DNA of 64,000 bases from positions 3,309 through 67,308 of the forward strand of contig JAHFSD010000001.1 of the NCBI GenBank assembly GCA_023265925.1. The letters run 5' to 3'. The number at the start of each line of letters is the position of its first letter. The first letter of the stretch is position 1. This DNA comes from an archaeon. GTDB taxonomy: Archaea; Nanobdellota; Nanobdellia; Woesearchaeales; GW2011-AR9. The notes below the pieces were generated by a model. It saw nothing but the letters and a program-made list of their open reading frames with translations. It did not search any database and was not told the DNA's origin. A program made the position numbers and the translations under genes. Positions 13,571 to 40,798 of the stretch are shown here, piece by piece.

Positions 13571-14155
13571 TTATAAGCTTTTCTTCTCTGCTGTTTTCAC
13601 AAAATCGAGAATTCTCTGTGCCGCCTCTTCCGCCATAATTTTGGTCGTATCCACCACCAGGTCATACTGCGACTCGTCATAGGGATCGATGCTATAATAT
13701 TTCTGATACCGCTCGGTGTCATTCTGTTGCCGGCGCCGAATGTCTCGCCGGGCATCCTCTAAAGAATTGATGTTCCCTTCATTGCGTTCAGCCCGCGCGA
13801 CGGCGTTTTGCAGATCCTTCCAGATGCGCCTCGCGCCTTCGTCAAAATCACACTTGATATAAATCTTGATGGACTCCGGAAGGAAATGATATTGTGTCCG
13901 GCCTTCCACAATAACAGTTTTTCCCTGCTGATGTAACTGGCGGGCAGACGCTGCTGCTTTCTGATCAACATCGACATCCGTCTCCGGGTGCGTTTGGGCA
14001 TACTCATTCAACTCTTCCAGAGTCATTCCTTTTTCTTTAGCCAATTCCCGCCGGATGCCACCGACATAAATCCGTTCGGCCTGCAGCCGTTCCACCAGGC
14101 TCTTGGCAACCGTGCTTTTCCCACTGCCGGGCGTGCCGGAGATGGTCAGGATCAT
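13571..14155 (-). CDS. cmk: archaeal-type cytidylate (CMP) kinase
   Basis: It has the P-loop ISGTPGSGKST. Its length (~190 aa) and pattern (RELAKEKGMTLEEL..., YDLVVDT) match archaeal cmk. Confidence 0.8.
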   Translation of the reverse strand: MILTISGTPGSGKSTVAKSLVERLQAERIYVGGIRRELAKEKGMTLEELNEYAQTHPETDVDVDQKAAASARQLHQQGKTVIVEGRTQYHFLPESIKIYIKCDFDEGARRIWKDLQNAVARAERNEGNINSLEDARRDIRRRQQNDTERYQKYYSIDPYDESQYDLVVDTTKIMAEEAAQRILDFVKTAEKKSL

Positions 14156-14805: not shown

Positions 14806-14988
14806 AGAACTGCGCAACTTATATCTTATTTGTGCGCAGTTCTAATCTGGTAAACTGCGTATCAAAGTCTACACTTTTGCGTTTCTGAGAGAATCAATCG
14901 CCGCAAAAGTGTAGATTACGAGGCTTTTGCCTAATCAGATCTAAAACGCAAAAGTCGAGGAAGTGTGCTATATGCTACGCAGTTTACC
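14806..14988. other. nested inverted-repeat domain (candidate structured RNA or protein-binding array)
   Basis: Hairpin AGAACTGCGCA (14806-14816) pairs with TGCGCAGTTCT (14833-14843). Outer stem GGTAAACTGCGTA (14849-14861) pairs with TACGCAGTTTACC (14976-14988). It encloses the 14-bp stem TCTACACTTTTGCG (14868-14881) / CGCAAAAGTGTAGA (14902-14915). Confidence 0.35.
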
Positions 14989-15071
14989 ATACCTACAAAG
15001 TAGGGTTATTCCCAGTCTTCTATCTATTCTGCTACCTACAAATTTAAATAGGTTCTCTCATTAATTCCTCC

Positions 15072-32709: not shown

Positions 32710-33756
32710 TTATCGCTTCCTCACCTTCATCCCCACATTTTTCACCCCATTCCAGACTAAGCCAGGATTCGCTTTCAGTCTCCGTATCATATAATTCAAC
32801 CCCTCCCCCGGCGTCAATTCCACCGGCATGTAATCCCGCACGACACAGCCTAGTTCGCGGAACTGTTTTCCCATTATTTCTCCCCACCGGACGCCGCGGA
32901 GGAACTGGAATTCATACCGCTGGGGAGGAATGCCGTTGCCATAAATAATTTTGTGCTGGATGTAGTTCAGTACCATCGGATCATGGGTGGCAATTTCCAC
33001 ATAAATGCCGGCCCGCAGCAAGGTTTCCACCTGCTGCACTAACCGTGCCTTCATTTTCAGCTTATTTCTGATGGCAATTTCTTTGGGCTCATTATAGGCG
33101 CCAATACAGATGCGGACACGCAGCTCTCCCTTGTGGAAAGGATAGGTGCTGTCGAGAAGGTAATGCTGAATATCCTGTTCAGTCCGATAGAGGCGGGATT
33201 GCAAAACTATGCCCAGATTTTCTGCACCCTTTCTCCAGAGTTGCTGGGCGGCATCCAGGGAAGCAGTGGTCCAGCAATGGTCTTCCATGTCGAGCGTCAC
33301 GTCCATGTTGTTGTTATAGGCAGAGGTCACAATCTTTTCCAGCTGGCTGGACAGGGAAGTGCTTTCGTCCACCTGCAACACCGGATTTCGTTCGGTAACG
33401 ACGCAGATGCTGGAGGGTTTGACGGAGACTGATGCCGGACGTTGATGAGGATGATCGGCTGTTTCGTACTGATCTTTAAACTGCTCGTAGAGGCGCCGGA
33501 TGGCCTGTTTGTAGATATGGATATACATCTGTGCTTCCGTTGCTGTCTTTGCTTCTTCGCCCAGAATGTCAAAAGTGGAGTAACGTTGCCGCCGCTGGTA
33601 ACTGTGCCGGATCGCTTCCAGGCCTTCATGCAGGGTATGGCCGGCCAGGTACGGCTCGCCCAGAGTGGTAAGAATTTTCCGGGTGTACTTATTGGAGTTG
33701 AGCAGGGAAATAAACAGCGAGTTTATTCCACCGATGAGCGGTTCCCAGATGGCCAT
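32710..33756 (-). CDS. proline dehydrogenase family protein
   Basis: The PRODH barrel C-terminal signature is FQFLRGVRWGE....GCVVRDYMPVE......YMIRRLKANP. Confidence 0.8.
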   Translation of the reverse strand: MAIWEPLIGGINSLFISLLNSNKYTRKILTTLGEPYLAGHTLHEGLEAIRHSYQRRQRYSTFDILGEEAKTATEAQMYIHIYKQAIRRLYEQFKDQYETADHPHQRPASVSVKPSSICVVTERNPVLQVDESTSLSSQLEKIVTSAYNNNMDVTLDMEDHCWTTASLDAAQQLWRKGAENLGIVLQSRLYRTEQDIQHYLLDSTYPFHKGELRVRICIGAYNEPKEIAIRNKLKMKARLVQQVETLLRAGIYVEIATHDPMVLNYIQHKIIYGNGIPPQRYEFQFLRGVRWGEIMGKQFRELGCVVRDYMPVELTPGEGLNYMIRRLKANPGLVWNGVKNVGMKVRKR

Positions 33757-33955
33757 ACTGCCGGTGAGCAGCGGGACATTTTAAAAGTTTCTGGAACATA
33801 TCTTGGTTTCCTGCTCTTGGCGCACCACACCGGTCAGCTCACGCTGGTTATAGCTGTGAGTACCGGGCACGACCATCACGTGCTCGTTTCTTTCTTTTTA
33901 TTTCATAGAATAAGAACTTTACCTTACACTGCGTTCGATTCCTGCTTTCATCCAC

Positions 33956-34008
33956 CGAGTTTCGCTGCGGCTCAACTCGAGGGGTTCAGCAGGCGCCGTG
34001 TACTAAAA
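33956..34008 (+). repeat. 53-bp direct repeat, copy A (left boundary of the 34.1-38.7 kb islet)
   Basis: CGAGTTTCGCTGCGGCTCAACTCGAGGGGTTCAGCAGGCGCCGTGTACTAAA matches 38761-38813 at 52/53 positions in the same orientation. Confidence 0.9.
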
Positions 34009-34107
34009 CAATTAATTTTTTATAAACTTTCTGTTCATTTTACTTTAGAGTAATAAAATATCCAATGATATGTTTAAATATCAGCGTGGTTCTTCTAGCA
34101 TTTCTCA

Positions 34108-36333
34108 ATGAAAAAAAGAGTAGTAAACCCCTCTAAGTACATTATCATTTCTGTAGTGCTGATTTTCATTTTATTGGTCATTGGCTTATTGTCTTTGGGG
34201 CCTTTCTTGGACAAAGTAGCAGCCCAGGTAAAAACAGTAATAAAAGCAAAGACCCCAACATCGGAAGTGGATATAGCTCTTTCTCCTATCCCTGACAAAA
34301 CCTATGTTACGACGGCAAAACTATTACGTCCTCGTTTTGCCAGCGGGGTTCATGTTCGCAATGAGTTAAAAAGTTACCTTACCAGTTTTACCGCAGGAAA
34401 ATATGATGAAGCTGTACATAAAATAATCTCTTTTCAGGGAGAGATCAATCCCTTTGATTTATCCACCCTTCTAGAAATAGATACAGCCCTTGCCGATTCC
34501 ATTGCCAAAGCAGCAGGTACCGTAAAATTAGCTAAGGATTTTAGTACTGAGCGTAAATCCTGTGAAGCTTTCAATGGTCTCCTTAATCCTTCTCTTCTCA
34601 TCATGGATCTTACGTTATGGAGCGGAAAATCGGAACTATATCTAGCTTTACAACAGAATAGAGATGTAGGAATGCAATGCTTATTCTACTATCCTCAGCT
34701 CAGCCACGGGATGGTGACGTATGATGTGAGAACGGGAAGGATTGTGCAAAGAAGTGCCTTCTGCGATCCTTCCGAAACGAAAAGCAAATGCTTCGGCGTT
34801 TGGGATTACTTCTGGAAGTTTGCGGTTGATCCGAGGGAGGGACCAATCAATTATGGTGTGGGATGTAGTCTAACCGACTGGATGAATCAGGGGTTTATCT
34901 GTACGCACGGGGTTGATATTCGAAATAATACAATGATGATGAACACTATCTTCTCCCTCGATGGCACTGCACTGCTCCACATTGACGTCAAAGATGAATT
35001 TCAGAATGCCTTAGGCGCCAGCGGAAAAATGATCATTGACAACGTCAAACAGAAATGCGCCAAAGTGAAGGAAAAATCATCCAAATACGGCAGTATTGTT
35101 CCTGCATTAACGGGAGCAGGGAGTTCTCTGACGGGCGGAGTTATTTCCACAGCTACAGCTGCCACCGGCACGGGAGAAGGCCTCAAGGAGGAATACGAGA
35201 AAGCGATGCTGTTTGCCTCGTTGTTCTCAGAAGCTTGTACAGCAAACCCGAGCGATTTAGCCAAGGATTTAGCCGGTGGAGGAGGAGCAGGACAGTTTGG
35301 GTTAAATAAACCGAATGCCTGTATTTTATCGGACGTGAAAGAGGTTAGTTCCAATGGATTACAAGCAGAAAAAGCCTGTCTTGATCATTTCTTTGGTCCC
35401 AGAGGACTGGAACAGGTGCAGAATCTGGATGGGCTTCCTGACAATTGGTGTATGCCTTCTGCTTCGCAAAGTGGTTCGCAATGTACTGATATCTCCTGTT
35501 TGCTCCCCGGAGGAGATAAGGGGTGTGGTTCTGACGGCACCAAATGCGGCAGGGAACCAACCAAACAGGAAGAACAATATCTGAAAAATGCTGGTGCGGG
35601 AGCAGTGGGGGAAAAATGGCGCGTCGTGGATACACGAAAAGAGATCGACGAAATTTGTGGAAGAAAACTGGGAGCGAGCGCCGCAGCTTGTTCTAGTCAG
35701 AGCACGAAAACAGCGTACGTTCTTAAAGAGAATATTAAAGCTAGTCCCAAGGATCCAACCACCGCACCTTCGCCAAAAGGTGGCGGAAAAGTTTACACTT
35801 TTCAAGCTTTGGTAAAGCATGAACAGAATCATATTACTAAAGATGATCCTAAAAAATCGGTTGATGAGAATGATCAAGTTCGAAAAGAGGAGGATAAAAA
35901 AAATTCTAAGAATTTTGTCAATCCTCCCAAAGGAGAGCCTGCCCCCGATGGCTTGGAACCGGATGAATGCTCCGCCCAGGCTCAAAAAGTGAATGCTTTC
36001 GCCGATTGCCTGGACAAATCCCAGTTAAAAAATATTGAACAGCCTAATGGTCTTGCCCCTGCTAGGGGTGGGTCAGCACCTGATCCTGCTCCACCCGGAG
36101 AGGAAGTTGGTGGTACAACTGTGCCAAAATGCGATGAAACGAGTAAAAGTGGTGGAGCAGGCGGATATTTTGGAACAAAAGAGAATTCGGCAGATGATTG
36201 CATTATTGGCGATTTCTGTGATTTTGGCGGTTCTGTATTGGGCGGTCGAATGGGAACACCAAAAATCTGCCAGCAGGTCGAAAGTACTGGAGAAGGAAAA
36301 GAACCTCCCTGTCCGGGCTTAGGCAATGACTAA
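34108..36333 (+). CDS. large secreted/signal-anchored Cys-rich protein of unknown family
   Basis: 741 aa with an N-terminal TM/signal anchor (IIISVVLIFILLVIGLLSLG) and many Cys throughout. The last ~115 aa form a Cys-rich module that recurs at 37369-37692. Confidence 0.7.
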   Translation: MKKRVVNPSKYIIISVVLIFILLVIGLLSLGPFLDKVAAQVKTVIKAKTPTSEVDIALSPIPDKTYVTTAKLLRPRFASGVHVRNELKSYLTSFTAGKYDEAVHKIISFQGEINPFDLSTLLEIDTALADSIAKAAGTVKLAKDFSTERKSCEAFNGLLNPSLLIMDLTLWSGKSELYLALQQNRDVGMQCLFYYPQLSHGMVTYDVRTGRIVQRSAFCDPSETKSKCFGVWDYFWKFAVDPREGPINYGVGCSLTDWMNQGFICTHGVDIRNNTMMMNTIFSLDGTALLHIDVKDEFQNALGASGKMIIDNVKQKCAKVKEKSSKYGSIVPALTGAGSSLTGGVISTATAATGTGEGLKEEYEKAMLFASLFSEACTANPSDLAKDLAGGGGAGQFGLNKPNACILSDVKEVSSNGLQAEKACLDHFFGPRGLEQVQNLDGLPDNWCMPSASQSGSQCTDISCLLPGGDKGCGSDGTKCGREPTKQEEQYLKNAGAGAVGEKWRVVDTRKEIDEICGRKLGASAAACSSQSTKTAYVLKENIKASPKDPTTAPSPKGGGKVYTFQALVKHEQNHITKDDPKKSVDENDQVRKEEDKKNSKNFVNPPKGEPAPDGLEPDECSAQAQKVNAFADCLDKSQLKNIEQPNGLAPARGGSAPDPAPPGEEVGGTTVPKCDETSKSGGAGGYFGTKENSADDCIIGDFCDFGGSVLGGRMGTPKICQQVESTGEGKEPPCPGLGND

Positions 36334-36341
36334 AAGAATAC

Positions 36342-37301
36342 TTAAAACATCATTAGAGGATAGTTCTTGGCAGGAACATGAGTTCGTACCTCCCTGAGGC
36401 ATTTCTTATTCTTTCCACATAACTCTTTCATAATTTCTTTATAGAATGGTATTAAATCTCCCCAAAGGTTCTGTACCGCATCATAATATTTACCTTCTTT
36501 AACAGATTCTTTAGACTCTTTCACCAATCTTTGATATTCTGGCGATTGCATAATGAGGCTTCTCCCTCTTTCTTTATTTCCCAAATACCATTCAATCTTG
36601 CCGGCACTCCAGTAATTTCCCTTTTGTAGGTTCTCATCCCGTATGGCAGCAAGCTCTTCCAGTGGCGTTAGTTTAATAATCTCTTCAGCAGCATTCCACC
36701 TTTTACGAAAATATTCACGAGCTTTGTTCAGGTATTCCTTAGACTTTTCAGCATTTTTATTAGAGTAATATTCTGATAAATGGTAATAGATCCGGGCTGT
36801 CCCGGCAAATCTTCCCCGCTTTTTATAATGCTCAGCACTATCTTCCATCAGCTCTTGGTATTTCTCTGAATCATTTTTATATTTACAATTGGCAAGATTG
36901 ACATCCAAGTAAATTAAATCATCCGTCGTGCTCCATACTACATGAATCATTCCCGTGGTTGTGGCAGTAGGAAGAGCTGCCTCCGCCATGGCAAGCCATT
37001 TTAGGAGTTCTGCATGTTCTTTCTTTATTTCCCCCTCATCACATACCTTTTTTATTCCTTCTACTTTGATATTTTTCTTGTTGATAAATGGCTGGGCAAT
37101 TTCAAGCGTATTGATGTAGTGCCAATAAGGGTCTCTCTTAAGGAGTTGTCTTTGCTTGCTTTCTTCCGTTTGATGTTCTCGTGCTGGCTGCAGTTCGACT
37201 GTTTCTGAACGCTGAGTTTCATAGCTACAGTGCTGAGCAGCAAGGGAACTCAGACCAATCAGCCCGGCCAACGTTAAGGAAAGGGATAATTCCTTCATCA
37301 T
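36342..37301 (-). CDS. exported helical-repeat (TPR/Sel1-like) partner protein, paralogue 1
   Basis: It has a signal/lipobox-like N-terminus (MMKELSLSLTLAGLIGLSSLAAQHC) from the ATG at 37301. It is convergent with, and 8 bp from, the stop of the 741-aa gene. It is paralogous to 37696-38646 (LANCKY, AEHY, SAGK.EW..GNKER blocks). Confidence 0.65.
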   Translation of the reverse strand: MMKELSLSLTLAGLIGLSSLAAQHCSYETQRSETVELQPAREHQTEESKQRQLLKRDPYWHYINTLEIAQPFINKKNIKVEGIKKVCDEGEIKKEHAELLKWLAMAEAALPTATTTGMIHVVWSTTDDLIYLDVNLANCKYKNDSEKYQELMEDSAEHYKKRGRFAGTARIYYHLSEYYSNKNAEKSKEYLNKAREYFRKRWNAAEEIIKLTPLEELAAIRDENLQKGNYWSAGKIEWYLGNKERGRSLIMQSPEYQRLVKESKESVKEGKYYDAVQNLWGDLIPFYKEIMKELCGKNKKCLREVRTHVPAKNYPLMMF

Positions 37302-37368
37302 AGTGATAACTGGAAGTGTGCAGTTTATATAAATATTTTGGTTCATTATTCGCAATGACAGAATAGGG

Positions 37369-37692
37369 GAATCGGATGAATGCTCAACCCAGACACAGAA
37401 AGTGGATGCAGTTGCTAATTGCTTAGAACAGTCTCAACTGAAGGATTTATTCGAGAAAGAAGGAAGAAAGCCTGTACCTGACCCCTTTCCACCAGGAGAT
37501 GAAGTTGGTGGCGTTTCCGTGCCAGGCTGTGGACAGCAAGGGCACAAAACCAGCCTTAAAGATGGGGTTACTGACTGCCTGACTGAAGACGTATGCCTAC
37601 AACCTATGGGACTCGTTTCAGGGGGTATGATAAATCCCAAATGCCAGGCGGTGCAAGGTGCAGAAGAAGGACTGCAGTGCCCGTTTAAGTAA
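37369..37692 (+). pseudogene. orphan, start-less copy of the C-terminal ~110-aa module of the 741-aa protein
   Basis: Its translation is ESDECSTQTQKVDAVANCLEQSQLK...PPGDEVGGVSVPGC...PKCQAV..EEGLQCP. The gene end at 35950-36333 reads PDECSAQAQKVNAFADCLDKSQLK...PPGEEVGGTTVPKC...PKICQQV..GKEPPCP. Homology begins 33 nt upstream of the only candidate start (GTG 37402), and an in-frame stop lies at 37330. Confidence 0.6.
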
Positions 37693-37695
37693 ACG

Positions 37696-38646
37696 TTAAA
37701 ATTCCTCTAATTTGTATGATAAGAGCTGGATACGGCAGTGCTGATTAGGGCATAATTCCTCAACAAGTTCCCGATAGAATGGAATTTTTAATTTATTCCA
37801 CAAACAGTGGAAGGCTGGTTCGTACCTCTGATCAGCAATAGCACTTTTAGCTAGTTCTAATTCGCGCCTAAACTCTCCTGATTGTCTCATTAATTCTTTT
37901 GCTCTCTCTTTATTTCCCATAACCCATTCTGCTTTTCCTGCGCTTAAGAGATCACCGCGCTTCAAATAGGAGTCTCTCAGTGCTGGCAGTTCCTCTGCCA
38001 TCGTGTAGGCAATTGCTCCTTCGGTGCTGTACGTCCACTGGGCGAAGAAATCACGAGCACACTGCTTATCGCCTGCAGCCAGGCAGGCCCGGCCAGCATC
38101 ATCAAATGCTTCCACAAGGGCATAATGCTCGGCAATTTCATGGAGGAAATCGTTCCATTTCTGAGTGCCGGAATATTTACAGTTCGCTAGTTTTCTATCA
38201 AGATCAACCAGTTCGTCAATAAGGTCAAACAGTGAATGAATCTCGCTGGTAACTCGAACATCAGCAGCTCGTACCGCTATCTTTCGCCGTGCCAGCACCT
38301 CAGAAAGTTCTCGATGCTTATCTCTAATTTCCTCTTCGTCGCAGTCACTTTTAAGATTATGAAGATCCGGATTAGCATTAAAAAAAACGAGATTATAGTC
38401 GGGAGTATCAAGGAGAAAATTCAAGTGGTTGGTATAATCATCAATAAACTGTTCTTTAACAATGGGATCAGGTCTGTTCTTTTTAGTTGCTGGTGGCGTG
38501 ATGTAATCTTGTCTCCCTGAATTTTCCAAAAGTTGACGTGGAGAAACAACGTGAGCAGTGGAACCTATTGACTTATTCCGAAAATAAAGATAGCCACTTA
38601 ATAATCCTACCAGTCCTAATCCTGCCAGCAGATACTGTTTTTTCAT
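37696..38646 (-). CDS. exported helical-repeat partner protein, paralogue 2
   Basis: It has an N-terminal TM anchor from the ATG at 38646 (MKKQYLLAGLGLVGLLSGYLYF). It is convergent with, and 3 bp from, the orphan module stop. It aligns with 36342-37301 over most of its length. Confidence 0.65.
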   Translation of the reverse strand: MKKQYLLAGLGLVGLLSGYLYFRNKSIGSTAHVVSPRQLLENSGRQDYITPPATKKNRPDPIVKEQFIDDYTNHLNFLLDTPDYNLVFFNANPDLHNLKSDCDEEEIRDKHRELSEVLARRKIAVRAADVRVTSEIHSLFDLIDELVDLDRKLANCKYSGTQKWNDFLHEIAEHYALVEAFDDAGRACLAAGDKQCARDFFAQWTYSTEGAIAYTMAEELPALRDSYLKRGDLLSAGKAEWVMGNKERAKELMRQSGEFRRELELAKSAIADQRYEPAFHCLWNKLKIPFYRELVEELCPNQHCRIQLLSYKLEEF

Positions 38647-38760
38647 GGGGTCCCGTCTCCCTAGCACATACCCTGTCTCTATCGATGGAAGTCTGCTTCT
38701 CTCCAAGGCTTTCTTATATTTATAACTTTGCCCCACCTGCCTCTCTCTTGTGAACTACCA

Positions 38761-38813
38761 CGAGTTTCGCTGCGGCTCAACTCGGGGGGTTCAGCAGGCG
38801 CCGTGTACTAAAA
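38761..38813 (+). repeat. 53-bp direct repeat, copy B (right boundary of the islet)
   Basis: It matches 33956-34008 at 52/53 positions (one A/G difference) in the same orientation. It lies between the thrS stop and the start of 37696-38646. Confidence 0.9.
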
Positions 38814-38872
38814 TTAGCTTTAATTATCCACTGGAAAGATGAGGATTGGCGAGAACATCGACTCTTTTCAGC

Positions 38873-40798
38873 TTACCCCGTAAAACTAATCCTTTTGCTC
38901 AGCAACACGGGAAGAGGCAGCGTATCGTAGGGCATCCCTTTGGTCTTTTTCCTGATCAGATCCACCACTTCATCAAAGCGCATCTTTTCTTCGGTCTTCT
39001 TTTCCCGCTCGCGGACAGCCAATTTCTTAAATTTGTCTTTCAGTTCCGTATCGCCCACCACCAAGATGTAGGGCACCCATTCCATCTCGGCTTCGCGGAT
39101 GCGTTTGCCGACGCTTTCCACCCGGTCATCCACGTCCGCCCGGATCTGTAATTTTGAAAATTCTTCCTGTACACCCTTACAAAATTCTAAATGCCGTTCA
39201 ATGGAGACGGGAATCAAACGCACTTGAGTGGGAGATAGCCAGAGGGGAAAGGTGGGAACTCTGCCTGCTTTTTCATCCATCCCGGCCCGTTCCAGCAAGG
39301 CATAGAGCACCCGTTCTACCGCTCCACTGGGAGAGAGATGCAAAATCAGCGGATGTTTTTTCTTACCCTGCTCATCCACATAGGTTATATCATATCTCTG
39401 CGCGTTTTCGACATCAATCTGATCCGTGGTGAGAGCCGAGGCTTTCTCCTGGGCATCGACAAAATTCCATTCGTATTTCATGCTGTAATAAAAGAACTGT
39501 TTCTCCCACATCTCCAGTAAAGCAGGCTTGCCCCAGTTCTTCACCAGCGTTTTGACAAAATCCTGATTTTTAACCCAAAACTCTTTGGTGACGCGGATTG
39601 CTAACTCCAGACTTTCCGGCAGGGAAAACCCGATGCCTTCCTGAACTTCTTTGGCCAGCTGGAAACGGCGCAGCAGTTCGCTTTTAGCTTGCTGCTCATC
39701 AGCACAAAAGGCGTGGCAATCGGGCATGGTAAAAGCCCGTAAGCGGCGCAATCCGGTCAATTCGCCATGCTGTTCGACCCGGAAACTGTAACGGGTCAGT
39801 TCATACAGCCAGACCGGAAGCTGTTTATAACTCACCTGGGCATCATGCATCTGCAGAAATTGGCCAAAACAGGCCGCAAACCGCAGAAAGACTTTTTTGT
39901 TAGGAGTTTGAATGGCATATTGCCGGGCTGGAAAACGGTTCAGGTAACTTTTTAACGAGGGATGCTCATAATCATACATGATCGGCGATTCCATTTCCAT
40001 CCCGCCAGATTCCTTGACCTTCTGGGTAACCCAGCGCTCAATCAAGCCTTTGATCAACCGCCCTTTGGGGTAGAACCGTAAATTGCCGGGATCAGAACCG
40101 GGCTCATAATCAACTAATTCCAGCTTTTTCATCAATTTGACGTGCAGTGGCTCTTCCTGGGCAACCCGGCTTTTAGCCAATTCATAGGCCGCAAATTTCT
40201 GCAGGTTAACATCTTTTTTAAAATCGTAGCCGGCAAATCGGCGTTTTTCCTTATCATAGGAAATCTCATTGAGTTTTCCGTCCAGATCCAGAATGTGCCA
40301 GTGGGAAATTAATTTTTCTTCGGCCTGAACGGCGGCGCTGACCTCAGTCTCTTTTTTCCTGAGTTCTCTTACTTCTCCCTTCCCGACTGAAAATTCCCGG
40401 CTTAACTCAGATAAGGGATGGCCCTTGCAGGATAACGTAAACGATTTATACCAGCCAAAGGGAGCGCGGGTGACTTTGAAATCCTTGACAAGCAGCTTTT
40501 CTGCATCAATGAGGACCTGCTCGGCTTTCCTGGGGGCAGCTAACGCTGAACTGAGATGAGCATAAGGATACAGCACCAGCACTTTAGCTTTTACCTGCGA
40601 GGCAATATCCTTGATTTCCTGGACGTAACGCCCGGTGATTCCGGGAAGATTCTCTTCATCCCTTTTTTCCACGGCGGTAAAGACTACTAAACACTCTTCG
40701 ACTCTCTTTTTTCCTTCCTTAACTTCTTCTGCTTCCTTAAGCGCCTTTTTCCTGGCTTCAAATTCGATGAAGTCAGCGTGAATGGTCAGGATTTTCAT
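38873..40798 (-). CDS. thrS: threonyl-tRNA synthetase, archaeal type with N-terminal DTD-like editing domain
   Basis: It has the archaeal editing-domain N-terminus (MKILTIHADFIEFE), class II core motifs, and a C-terminal anticodon-binding domain (YILVVGDTELK). Confidence 0.95.
   Translation of the reverse strand: MKILTIHADFIEFEARKKALKEAEEVKEGKKRVEECLVVFTAVEKRDEENLPGITGRYVQEIKDIASQVKAKVLVLYPYAHLSSALAAPRKAEQVLIDAEKLLVKDFKVTRAPFGWYKSFTLSCKGHPLSELSREFSVGKGEVRELRKKETEVSAAVQAEEKLISHWHILDLDGKLNEISYDKEKRRFAGYDFKKDVNLQKFAAYELAKSRVAQEEPLHVKLMKKLELVDYEPGSDPGNLRFYPKGRLIKGLIERWVTQKVKESGGMEMESPIMYDYEHPSLKSYLNRFPARQYAIQTPNKKVFLRFAACFGQFLQMHDAQVSYKQLPVWLYELTRYSFRVEQHGELTGLRRLRAFTMPDCHAFCADEQQAKSELLRRFQLAKEVQEGIGFSLPESLELAIRVTKEFWVKNQDFVKTLVKNWGKPALLEMWEKQFFYYSMKYEWNFVDAQEKASALTTDQIDVENAQRYDITYVDEQGKKKHPLILHLSPSGAVERVLYALLERAGMDEKAGRVPTFPLWLSPTQVRLIPVSIERHLEFCKGVQEEFSKLQIRADVDDRVESVGKRIREAEMEWVPYILVVGDTELKDKFKKLAVREREKKTEEKMRFDEVVDLIRKKTKGMPYDTLPLPVLLSKRISFTG

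Follow-up and report, generated by a model that had tools for sequence, protein, structure and literature searches.

In the 64-kb window analysed here (the window being the whole stretch of DNA), a 53-bp sequence stands at both edges of a four-gene islet, between a threonyl-tRNA synthetase (ThrRS) gene and a proline dehydrogenase (Pro_dh) gene. The question raised by this locus is what the repeats are, and whether they had a part in the arrival of the islet. The earlier note had read them as the attL/attR scars of a site-specific integration or as a duplication made on insertion. Our analysis indicated that the repeats are very probably the decayed end sequences of an element of the IS200 group (IS200/IS605 family), and not att scars.

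Repeat Copies and Their Distribution

The repeat pair proved genuine. The segments 33956–34008 (copy A) and 38761–38813 (copy B) were identical at 52 of 53 positions, lay in direct orientation 4805 nt apart (start to start), and differed only by A/G at repeat position 25. No comparable pair was obtained in 100 dinucleotide shuffles. The CGAGTT...AACTCG stem described earlier was found in both copies. The statement that the flanks diverge immediately held only in part, for copy B ran 11 nt further (38750–38760, GTGAACTACCA). This extension was common to copy B, a third copy in the same genome and the copy of a congener, and was absent from copy A. The 53-mer itself was composed of 47 nt of IS sequence and 6 nt of flank (CTAAAA, the complement of the conserved TTTAG flank treated below).

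The genome of this archaeon (G000; 1.2 Mb, 57 contigs, 86% complete) had been thought to hold two copies only. A pattern search with up to three mismatches indeed recovered just these two, while BLAST revealed a third on contig C28 (14229–14290), which was 95% identical. Over the 47 shared IS positions, copies A and B differed once, and the C28 copy differed from both by 3–4. Two congeners (G001 and G002) and a member of another genus (G015) served for comparison. It had been argued that the repeat would lose its value as an islet boundary if it turned out to be a common dispersed sequence. BLAST against the genome and its relatives found an unrelated third locus here and several loci in a congener; this bears out the objection in a mild form, the repeat being a dispersed family of low copy number and not a common one. 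The copy of G001 carried three substitutions, and its stem stayed paired, as G-T/G-U, only on the minus strand of the window. Moreover, every copy of the repeat lay upstream of a co-oriented gene on the minus strand. When copy B was compared by BLAST with 401 genomes of the order, weak and consistent matches to the hairpin part were obtained in several other families. These were typically two per genome, at or near contig ends, which is the signature of a multi-copy repeat.

Full-Length IS200 Relatives

Elements of the IS200/IS605 family encode the Y1/HUH transposase TnpA, which moves single-stranded DNA by 'peel and paste' and recognises subterminal hairpins. In this family the left end (LE) is flanked by a target tetranucleotide, which is recognised by a guide sequence 5' of the hairpin foot (PMC5027513). 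By analogy, TnpA of the lineage described below would act as in IS608.

A multi-copy repeat in other families of this order ended with the hairpin and GTAGTTCAC; its upstream part coded for the C-terminus of TnpA. In these right-end contexts (G108, G369, G047 and G050), the hairpin and TGGTAGTTCAC closed the repeated unit; the sequence upstream, reading frame included, was common to the copies, and all of them differed past GTTCAC. The left-end context was also seen in G166 (L009), where the same hairpin formed part of a longer rod-like palindrome after TTTAG. Both ends were present in L012 (from G139). There, a rod-like palindrome began right after TTTAG and was followed by a 154-aa ORF that matched Pfam Y1_Tnp ('Transposase IS200 like') at 8.7e-26; a second, similar hairpin came after the ORF stop, and the right end (RE) closed with ...GCAGTTCAC. 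This layout identified the unit as TTTAG / LE – tnpA – RE, that is, an IS200-group element.

When public genomes were scanned for the LE start, two more informative loci emerged. L066 (CAZOPZ010000056.1) began with TTTAG and TACACGGCGCCTGCTGAACCCCTCGAGTT, as copy A does, was collinear with copy A for about 170 nt, and continued into a 154-aa ORF matching Pfam Y1_Tnp at 6.8e-25. L068 was a gene-less derivative of about 200 nt, composed of the LE, about 45 nt from the end of tnpA and the RE GACGCCACGAGTTGAGCGAAGCGAAACTCGTGGTAGTTCAC, and the same tail was found in copy B. In addition, a metagenome scan yielded L073, another gene-less derivative with an LE, a tnpA remnant and an RE.

In the minus-strand reading, the unit in the relatives was therefore TTTAG / LE (a compound hairpin of ~85 nt) – structured 5'-UTR – tnpA (154 aa) – RE hairpin – TGGTAGTTCAC. 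The full-length relatives were about 0.73 kb long, with the Y1_Tnp gene as their sole coding content. In the REs of L068, L006, L008 and L011, conservation stopped immediately past GTTCAC. The flanks past this terminus all differed, which indicates that no target-site duplication is made. The full-length relatives accordingly have the traits of the IS200 group: a Y1 transposase only, similar subterminal hairpins, a fixed target on the LE side, no inverted repeats and no duplication.

Structure of Copies A and B

The two copies and their parts in the window were as follows.

33832–34002, minus strand: copy A, an IS200 LE (three stacked helices) with a relic of the tnpA 5'-UTR, collinear with L066 and L012
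33956–33979, minus strand: hairpin of copy A (CGAGTT, 12-nt loop, AACTCG), a subterminal palindrome of the transposase-recognised type
34003–34007, minus strand: TTTAG beside the LE of copy A (CTAAA on the plus strand), the presumed insertion target, outside the element
38750–38807, minus strand: copy B, a 58-nt gene-less derivative with the 5' part of the LE TACACGGCGCCTGCTGAACCCC, a single hairpin and the RE tail TGGTAGTTCAC
38761–38784, minus strand: hairpin of copy B, found by stem covariation and fold
38808–38812, minus strand: TTTAG beside copy B (CTAAA on the plus strand), the target pentanucleotide

Copy A, whose lower boundary (~33832) is accurate to about 5 nt, ended just before the tnpA promoter, at the place where L066 and L012 have a TATA box and the tnpA start. 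Neither a tnpA remnant nor an RE was present in it. For the same strain, a Logan contig began at 33887, inside copy A. In copy B, 22 nt from the LE start were followed by one hairpin and an 11-nt RE tail. Its 5' 47 nt matched the LE of copy A, and its tail was equal to the RE of L068, L006, L008 and L011. Beyond the shared 47 nt, copy A ran on into the LE interior and the tnpA 5'-UTR, and copy B into the RE tail.

The LE and RE hairpins of L012 and L068 aligned with the hairpins of copies A and B. Over 15 LE, RE and fusion copies, a 9-bp stem, with the 6-bp CGAGTT/AACTCG stem as its core, was 92.6% paired, compared with at most 50% when the stem was slid. Four of the pairs changed on both sides, and none of 500 shuffles reached the observed covariation score. 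Folded as DNA, copy A gave three stacked helices with −16.3 kcal/mol (z −2.5). The intact LEs also gave three stacked helices, with −24.1 and −33 kcal/mol (z about −6). Copy A thus folds far worse than intact LEs, indicating that it is decaying.

TTTAG preceded the LE in all 12 LE-bearing copies (A, B and C28 of this genome, one of G001, and L009, L010, L012, L039, L037, L066, L068 and L073), and the sequence farther upstream differed each time. Each of the two window copies is a separate IS200-type relic with its own TTTAG flank, and neither an att site nor one half of a target duplication. The earlier idea of a mobile-DNA footprint thus holds in so far as the repeats are traces of mobile DNA, and falls as regards scars of site-specific integration. 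Copy A is the fragment of LE and 5'-UTR that remained after tnpA and the RE were deleted. For copy B, recombination between the LE and RE hairpins would have collapsed both into one, either at the present site or before arrival there.

Single-Hairpin Fusions and Other Relics

The layout of copy B, in which LE start and RE terminus enclose no coding sequence, was also found at G000:C28, G001:C145 and G296:C6, which makes three loci in this genus and one in another family of the order. The fusions were 57–58 nt long within the genus and a few nt longer in G296. The diagnostic pattern occurred in 2 of 401 sampled genomes, with no control matches, and additionally in G001. The LE and RE hairpins are near-identical in this lineage, so that recombination between them would give exactly the single-hairpin product. 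Furthermore, the junction in G296 lay at a different point of the hairpin, which suggests that the collapse occurred more than once.

The element on C28 (14229–14285; L035 2001–2057) abutted a 48-aa antitoxin-like ORF of the RHH/CopG type and provided its TGA stop. This ORF had an orthologue in G001 with 80% identity, and the homology ended exactly at the GTGAAC end of the element. In the comparison of C28 with G001:C11, the pentanucleotide fell outside the element under either plausible alignment; the RE side was exact and the LE side ambiguous. A PIN-domain gene and an AbrB-like gene also adjoin the mini-element of C28. At least three further relics were present in G001, whose copies included RE-only relics. 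The site of the G001:C145 element was unoccupied in the present genome, as judged from its contig C46, where the spacers were too diverged to align.

A second, unrelated small repeat was noticed in the same genome, in the window at 14848–14989, on C28 at 13984–14049 and on at least ten other contigs. It is an element of about 162 nt with the terminal inverted repeats TGGTAAACTGCGTA...TACGCAGTTTACCA. Near-full-length copies were found on C5, C54, C14 and C7, short forms of about 70 nt (positions 1–39 joined to 131–162) on C28, C47, C45, C44 and C14, and interior-only copies on C38, C49 and C42. Its overall appearance is that of a MITE carrying a nested insert.

Search for a Transposase Gene

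No Y1_Tnp domain was found in G000, G001 or G002, although it was present in 11 of the 41 relatives. A tblastn search of this genome with TnpA gave no match, an absence that applies to an 86%-complete assembly. Multi-copy insertion sequences are often lost from genome bins. With no tnpA in the assembly, neither copy can move on its own. Since this genome and its two congeners had no tnpA, the membership of the window copies in the family rests on the homology of their ends to elements in other genera. The Y1/HUH domain (PF01797) occurred only in those homologous elements elsewhere; the window copies are relics or derivatives and not an insertion sequence. The IS family looks extinct, or nearly so, in this genus.

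The Islet and Its Insertion Site

The neighbourhood of the two copies comprised the following features.

32710–33756, minus strand: proline dehydrogenase gene (Pfam Pro_dh, 3e-24), the ancestral right-hand neighbour of the ThrRS gene
34108–38736, no single strand: islet between the relics, with four ORFs of 741 aa (plus), 337 aa (minus), 96 aa (plus) and 346 aa (minus); not part of the IS
38873–40798, minus strand: archaeal-type threonyl-tRNA synthetase gene (Pfam tRNA-Thr_ED, tRNA-synt_2b and HGTP_anticodon)

Copy B began 60 nt past the stop codon of the ThrRS gene. The islet ORFs matched no Pfam family above the cut-off, and the 96-aa ORF was a copy of the C-terminus of the large protein. 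The G+C content of the islet (0.40–0.47) was only slightly below that of its flanks. The 337-aa and 346-aa proteins (36342–37355 and 37696–38736) were exported helical proteins, and the genes of this family often occurred as tandem pairs (C15, C41 and C48).

In G002, of the same genus, the ThrRS gene was followed after 82 nt by a degraded Pro_dh gene, with neither islet nor repeat. In G015, of another genus, the gap between the two genes was 193 nt, and islet and repeat were both absent. The adjacency of ThrRS and Pro_dh in both genomes indicates that this is the ancestral order and that the ~5-kb block of copy B, four ORFs and copy A is an insertion in the present lineage. The claim that the repeats bracket the islet was therefore borne out at this locus, where they enclose a segment inserted relative to G002 and G015. 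It did not extend to such islets in general. The 346-aa protein belongs to a genus-specific family, for which 14 loci were counted in this genome and 7 in G002; the 39 other relatives, G001 included, had none. At the other loci of the islet gene family (about 13), the repeat was found in no case, which indicates that it is not a general islet boundary. The upstream regions of the islet-gene paralogues were searched for pre-insertion sequence and gave no usable homology. Likewise, neither copy yielded an empty site exact to the nucleotide: the G002 spacer resembled their flanks only in being AT-rich, as intergenic DNA has diverged too far in the congeners.

Some peculiarities of the neighbouring genes in the relatives were also recorded. 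The Pro_dh beside ThrRS in G002 (C26, 473–961; L051) was represented by three collinear fragments (aa 1–57, 139–182 and 295–346) in a 180-aa frame, and is an internally deleted pseudogene or a remnant. The ThrRS of G001 (C122, 665–2425) shared 80% identity with the window enzyme over the N-terminal editing domain and 29% over the catalytic part, and had one TAA. Most of the family shared this pattern, and the fully archaeal type was found in G000, G002, G003, G026 and G033. The pattern could reflect domain replacement among close relatives or, in G001 (contamination 6%), a binning chimera.

The same comparison bears on whether the repeats could be attL and attR of an island integrated by a site-specific recombinase. 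This explanation predicts direct repeats around a segment that relatives lack at the orthologous site, as was observed here. However, neither the islet ORFs nor their neighbours matched a recombinase family and ARAGORN found no tRNA there, just as had been remarked in the earlier note. The repeat was homologous to the ends of tnpA-bearing IS200 elements and occurred at other, unrelated loci. In addition, single-copy empty sites had been proposed as a check, and an attB should hold one copy, yet the 82-nt spacer of G002 had no repeat and none was found anywhere in that genome. An att origin is therefore given almost no probability.

Search for RNA Genes

Covariance models for tRNA and other RNAs had been suggested as a check around copy A. 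No Rfam family was matched at E ≤ 10 over 33000–39500, and no tRNA was found. With cmscan, there was no relevant match on the window region or on 15 related loci, and ARAGORN, applied to the 64-kb window and to nine related loci, detected no tRNA. The T-loop-like string beside the 53-mer of copy A (33931–33945) was, as reported, not part of a tRNA, and the resemblance is due to chance. The string is the complement of the 3' strands of the outer helices of the LE, and it was not kept in the homologous LEs, which read GCAGGAGTAGAGCGC in L066 and GCAGGGATTAATCGC in L068. A tRNA or split tRNA was rejected on these two grounds. The minus strand resembled, by eye, helix III/loop C and loop E of 5S rRNA; this candidate was also rejected, for RF00001 gave no match in the genome or the related loci and the full-length homologues were simple rods, not three-way junctions. 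SRP RNA, RNase P RNA and riboswitches had no Rfam match. Moreover, a TnpB omega-RNA scaffold did not fit, because the adjoining coding sequence was TnpA (Y1) and not TnpB and the elements were only ~0.73 kb long.

Two observations were made in passing. RF00001 had no match at E ≤ 10 in the whole 1.2-Mb, 86%-complete genome, and the gene was found in 14 of 14 control genomes. In L011 (G047:C169, 1210–1341), which comes from a different family of the order, a tRNA gene interrupted by a 51-nt intron lay about 600 nt from an IS200 right end; it was detected by Rfam (41 bits) and missed by ARAGORN.

The copies might also have been exapted as a structured RNA or regulatory element, with copy A as a Pro_dh leader or terminator and copy B as a ThrRS 3' hairpin, or as a small RNA like the 5'tnpA RNA of Salmonella IS200. 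Copy A lies upstream of Pro_dh and copy B downstream of ThrRS, both on the coding strand, and the stem survives all three substitutions of the congener copy, as G-U pairs in the minus-strand reading. It is also known that the 5' ends of Salmonella IS200 yield regulatory RNAs (PMC4513863; bioRxiv 10.1101/2024.06.26.600842). However, G-T pairs are equally tolerated in the single-stranded DNA hairpins bound by TnpA, copy A folded much worse than the intact LEs, relatives had Pro_dh or ThrRS without the element, and Rfam gave no match. Such a function is regarded as highly unlikely.

Origin of the Bracketing Arrangement

As for how two relics came to border one islet, we prefer the reading that copies A and B arose by two separate insertions that persisted along the margins of dispensable DNA, and were not the vehicle of the islet. 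Both stand immediately 3' of TTTAG, in one orientation, and now form the edges of a 4.7-kb variable islet inserted between ThrRS and Pro_dh. Under separate insertions, few sites would tolerate insertions in this very compact genome. Two of the three genome copies lay within 4.8 kb of each other, for which random placement gives a probability of about 0.02 (3 pairs × 2 × 4.8 kb / 1.2 Mb). This proximity hints at a link with the islet that independent insertions do not explain, unless tolerated sites are few. The shared orientation of the copies adds little, since insertion in the IS200/IS605 family is biased to the lagging-strand template and thus tied to replication (PMC5027513).

A bolder proposal is that the 57–58-nt fusion is itself mobile, as a near-minimal Y1 substrate acted on in trans, and/or that two IS200 copies carried the 4.7-kb surface-protein islet as a composite single-strand transposon. 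Taken as a whole, this proposal is doubtful. Its composite part, considered for itself, is unlikely. In that case two direct full-length copies would have moved IS, islet and IS as one unit. Excision by TnpA would have started at the LE of the upstream copy, today's B, and reached as far as the RE of the downstream one, today's A, and the unit would have landed 3' of TTTAG in the spacer between ThrRS and Pro_dh. Later, copy B would have collapsed and copy A would have lost tnpA and its RE. The common orientation of the relics, the intact LE boundary and TTTAG at the outer left edge, and the joint absence of the islet and both relics from G002 and G015 are consistent with such an event. The improbable closeness of two of the three copies (~0.02), and the single difference between A and B as against 3–4 for C28, point in the same direction. 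However, the outer RE that a composite requires is missing, as copy A stops short of tnpA, and the repeat was found at none of the ~13 other loci of the islet gene family. No second unit of IS, islet and IS was present in any collection scanned, and the same orientation is expected anyway from the strand bias noted above. Furthermore, we know of no described composite IS200/IS605 transposon.

The arrangement could also have arisen by a Campbell-type capture, in which the ThrRS/Pro_dh spacer already contained an IS relic, and circular or incoming DNA that bore the islet and one further relic recombined with it. The 47 nt would then have been duplicated as direct repeats with hybrid flanks; equivalently, gene conversion would keep A and B alike. 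A single crossover in the core predicts what was seen, namely identity of the core only, with the RE tail beyond it in one copy and the LE interior in the other, and the near-perfect identity (52/53) also agrees with it. In contrast, a shared stretch of 47 nt is short for homologous recombination, there is no known donor locus or circular form, and each copy had its own TTTAG flank, as expected of independent IS insertion. We consider this capture quite unlikely, and separate insertions remain the preferred origin of copies A and B.

Comparison with Known Systems

The full-length relatives were compared with the IS200 group proper (IS200 of Salmonella and E. coli, with the mechanism taken from IS608 and ISDra2). 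The two were alike in that a Y1_Tnp of about 154 aa was present alone in an element of ~0.73 kb, which had no terminal inverted repeats and whose two ends carried subterminal hairpins resembling each other in sequence. Moreover, the LE abutted a fixed short target, and the RE ended about 11 nt past the hairpin foot. A structured LE and 5'-UTR upstream of tnpA is likewise shared with IS200 (PMC4513863; PMC5027513). However, the host here is a DPANN (Woesearchaeota-type) archaeon, and the target is TTTAG in place of TTAC. The LE is a rod of ~85 nt with three stacked helices, and the window copies have no transposase. It is an ordinary element in a little-studied lineage.

PATEs and MITE-like derivatives of the IS200/IS605 family have been described in Haloquadratum walsbyi (PMC3119063) and Halanaerobium (PMC7290912), and consist of the IS ends without a gene. 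L068 and L073 are classical cases of this kind and copy B is an extreme one. Copy B and the elements at C28, G001:C145 and G296:C6 can all be assigned here, whereas copy A, which has no RE, is a truncated relic. Copy B and its three look-alikes differ from the described derivatives in having one hairpin, half LE and half RE, instead of two end hairpins, and in being low-copy. The REP/REPIN sequences associated with RAYT (TnpA-REP) are also short, single intergenic hairpins related to IS200/IS605 ends, with no internal transposase (PMC8266576). In contrast to them, there were three copies here instead of tens to hundreds, no RAYT/Y1 gene and no inverted doublets. Finally, the attL/attR sites of integrase-mobilised islands resemble the present case in that direct repeats stand at both edges of a strain-specific segment. 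The differences are that recombinase and tRNA target were absent here, that the empty site had no attB, and that the repeats are parts of transposable elements with target flanks of their own.

Implications

With the repeats identified, the 'att site' argument drops out of the reading of the islet. What remains is a true four-gene insertion, with nothing pointing to an integrase-driven island. The only likely present-day effect of copies A and B is that the islet could be deleted between their 47-nt stretches of direct homology, which is a plausible route to islet loss. The analysis also documents a Woesearchaeota-type IS200 lineage, with a TTTAG target, a three-helix left end and a GTTCAC terminus. 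This lineage is seen to decay by truncation, by internal deletions that leave MITEs, and by fusion of its two end hairpins into a single one. This should aid the annotation of hairpin repeats in DPANN genomes, which may be mistaken for RNA genes or att sites. If the composite reading were true, there would be a link between IS200 elements and the way in which a fast-evolving gene family, specific to one genus, spreads in a DPANN archaeon.
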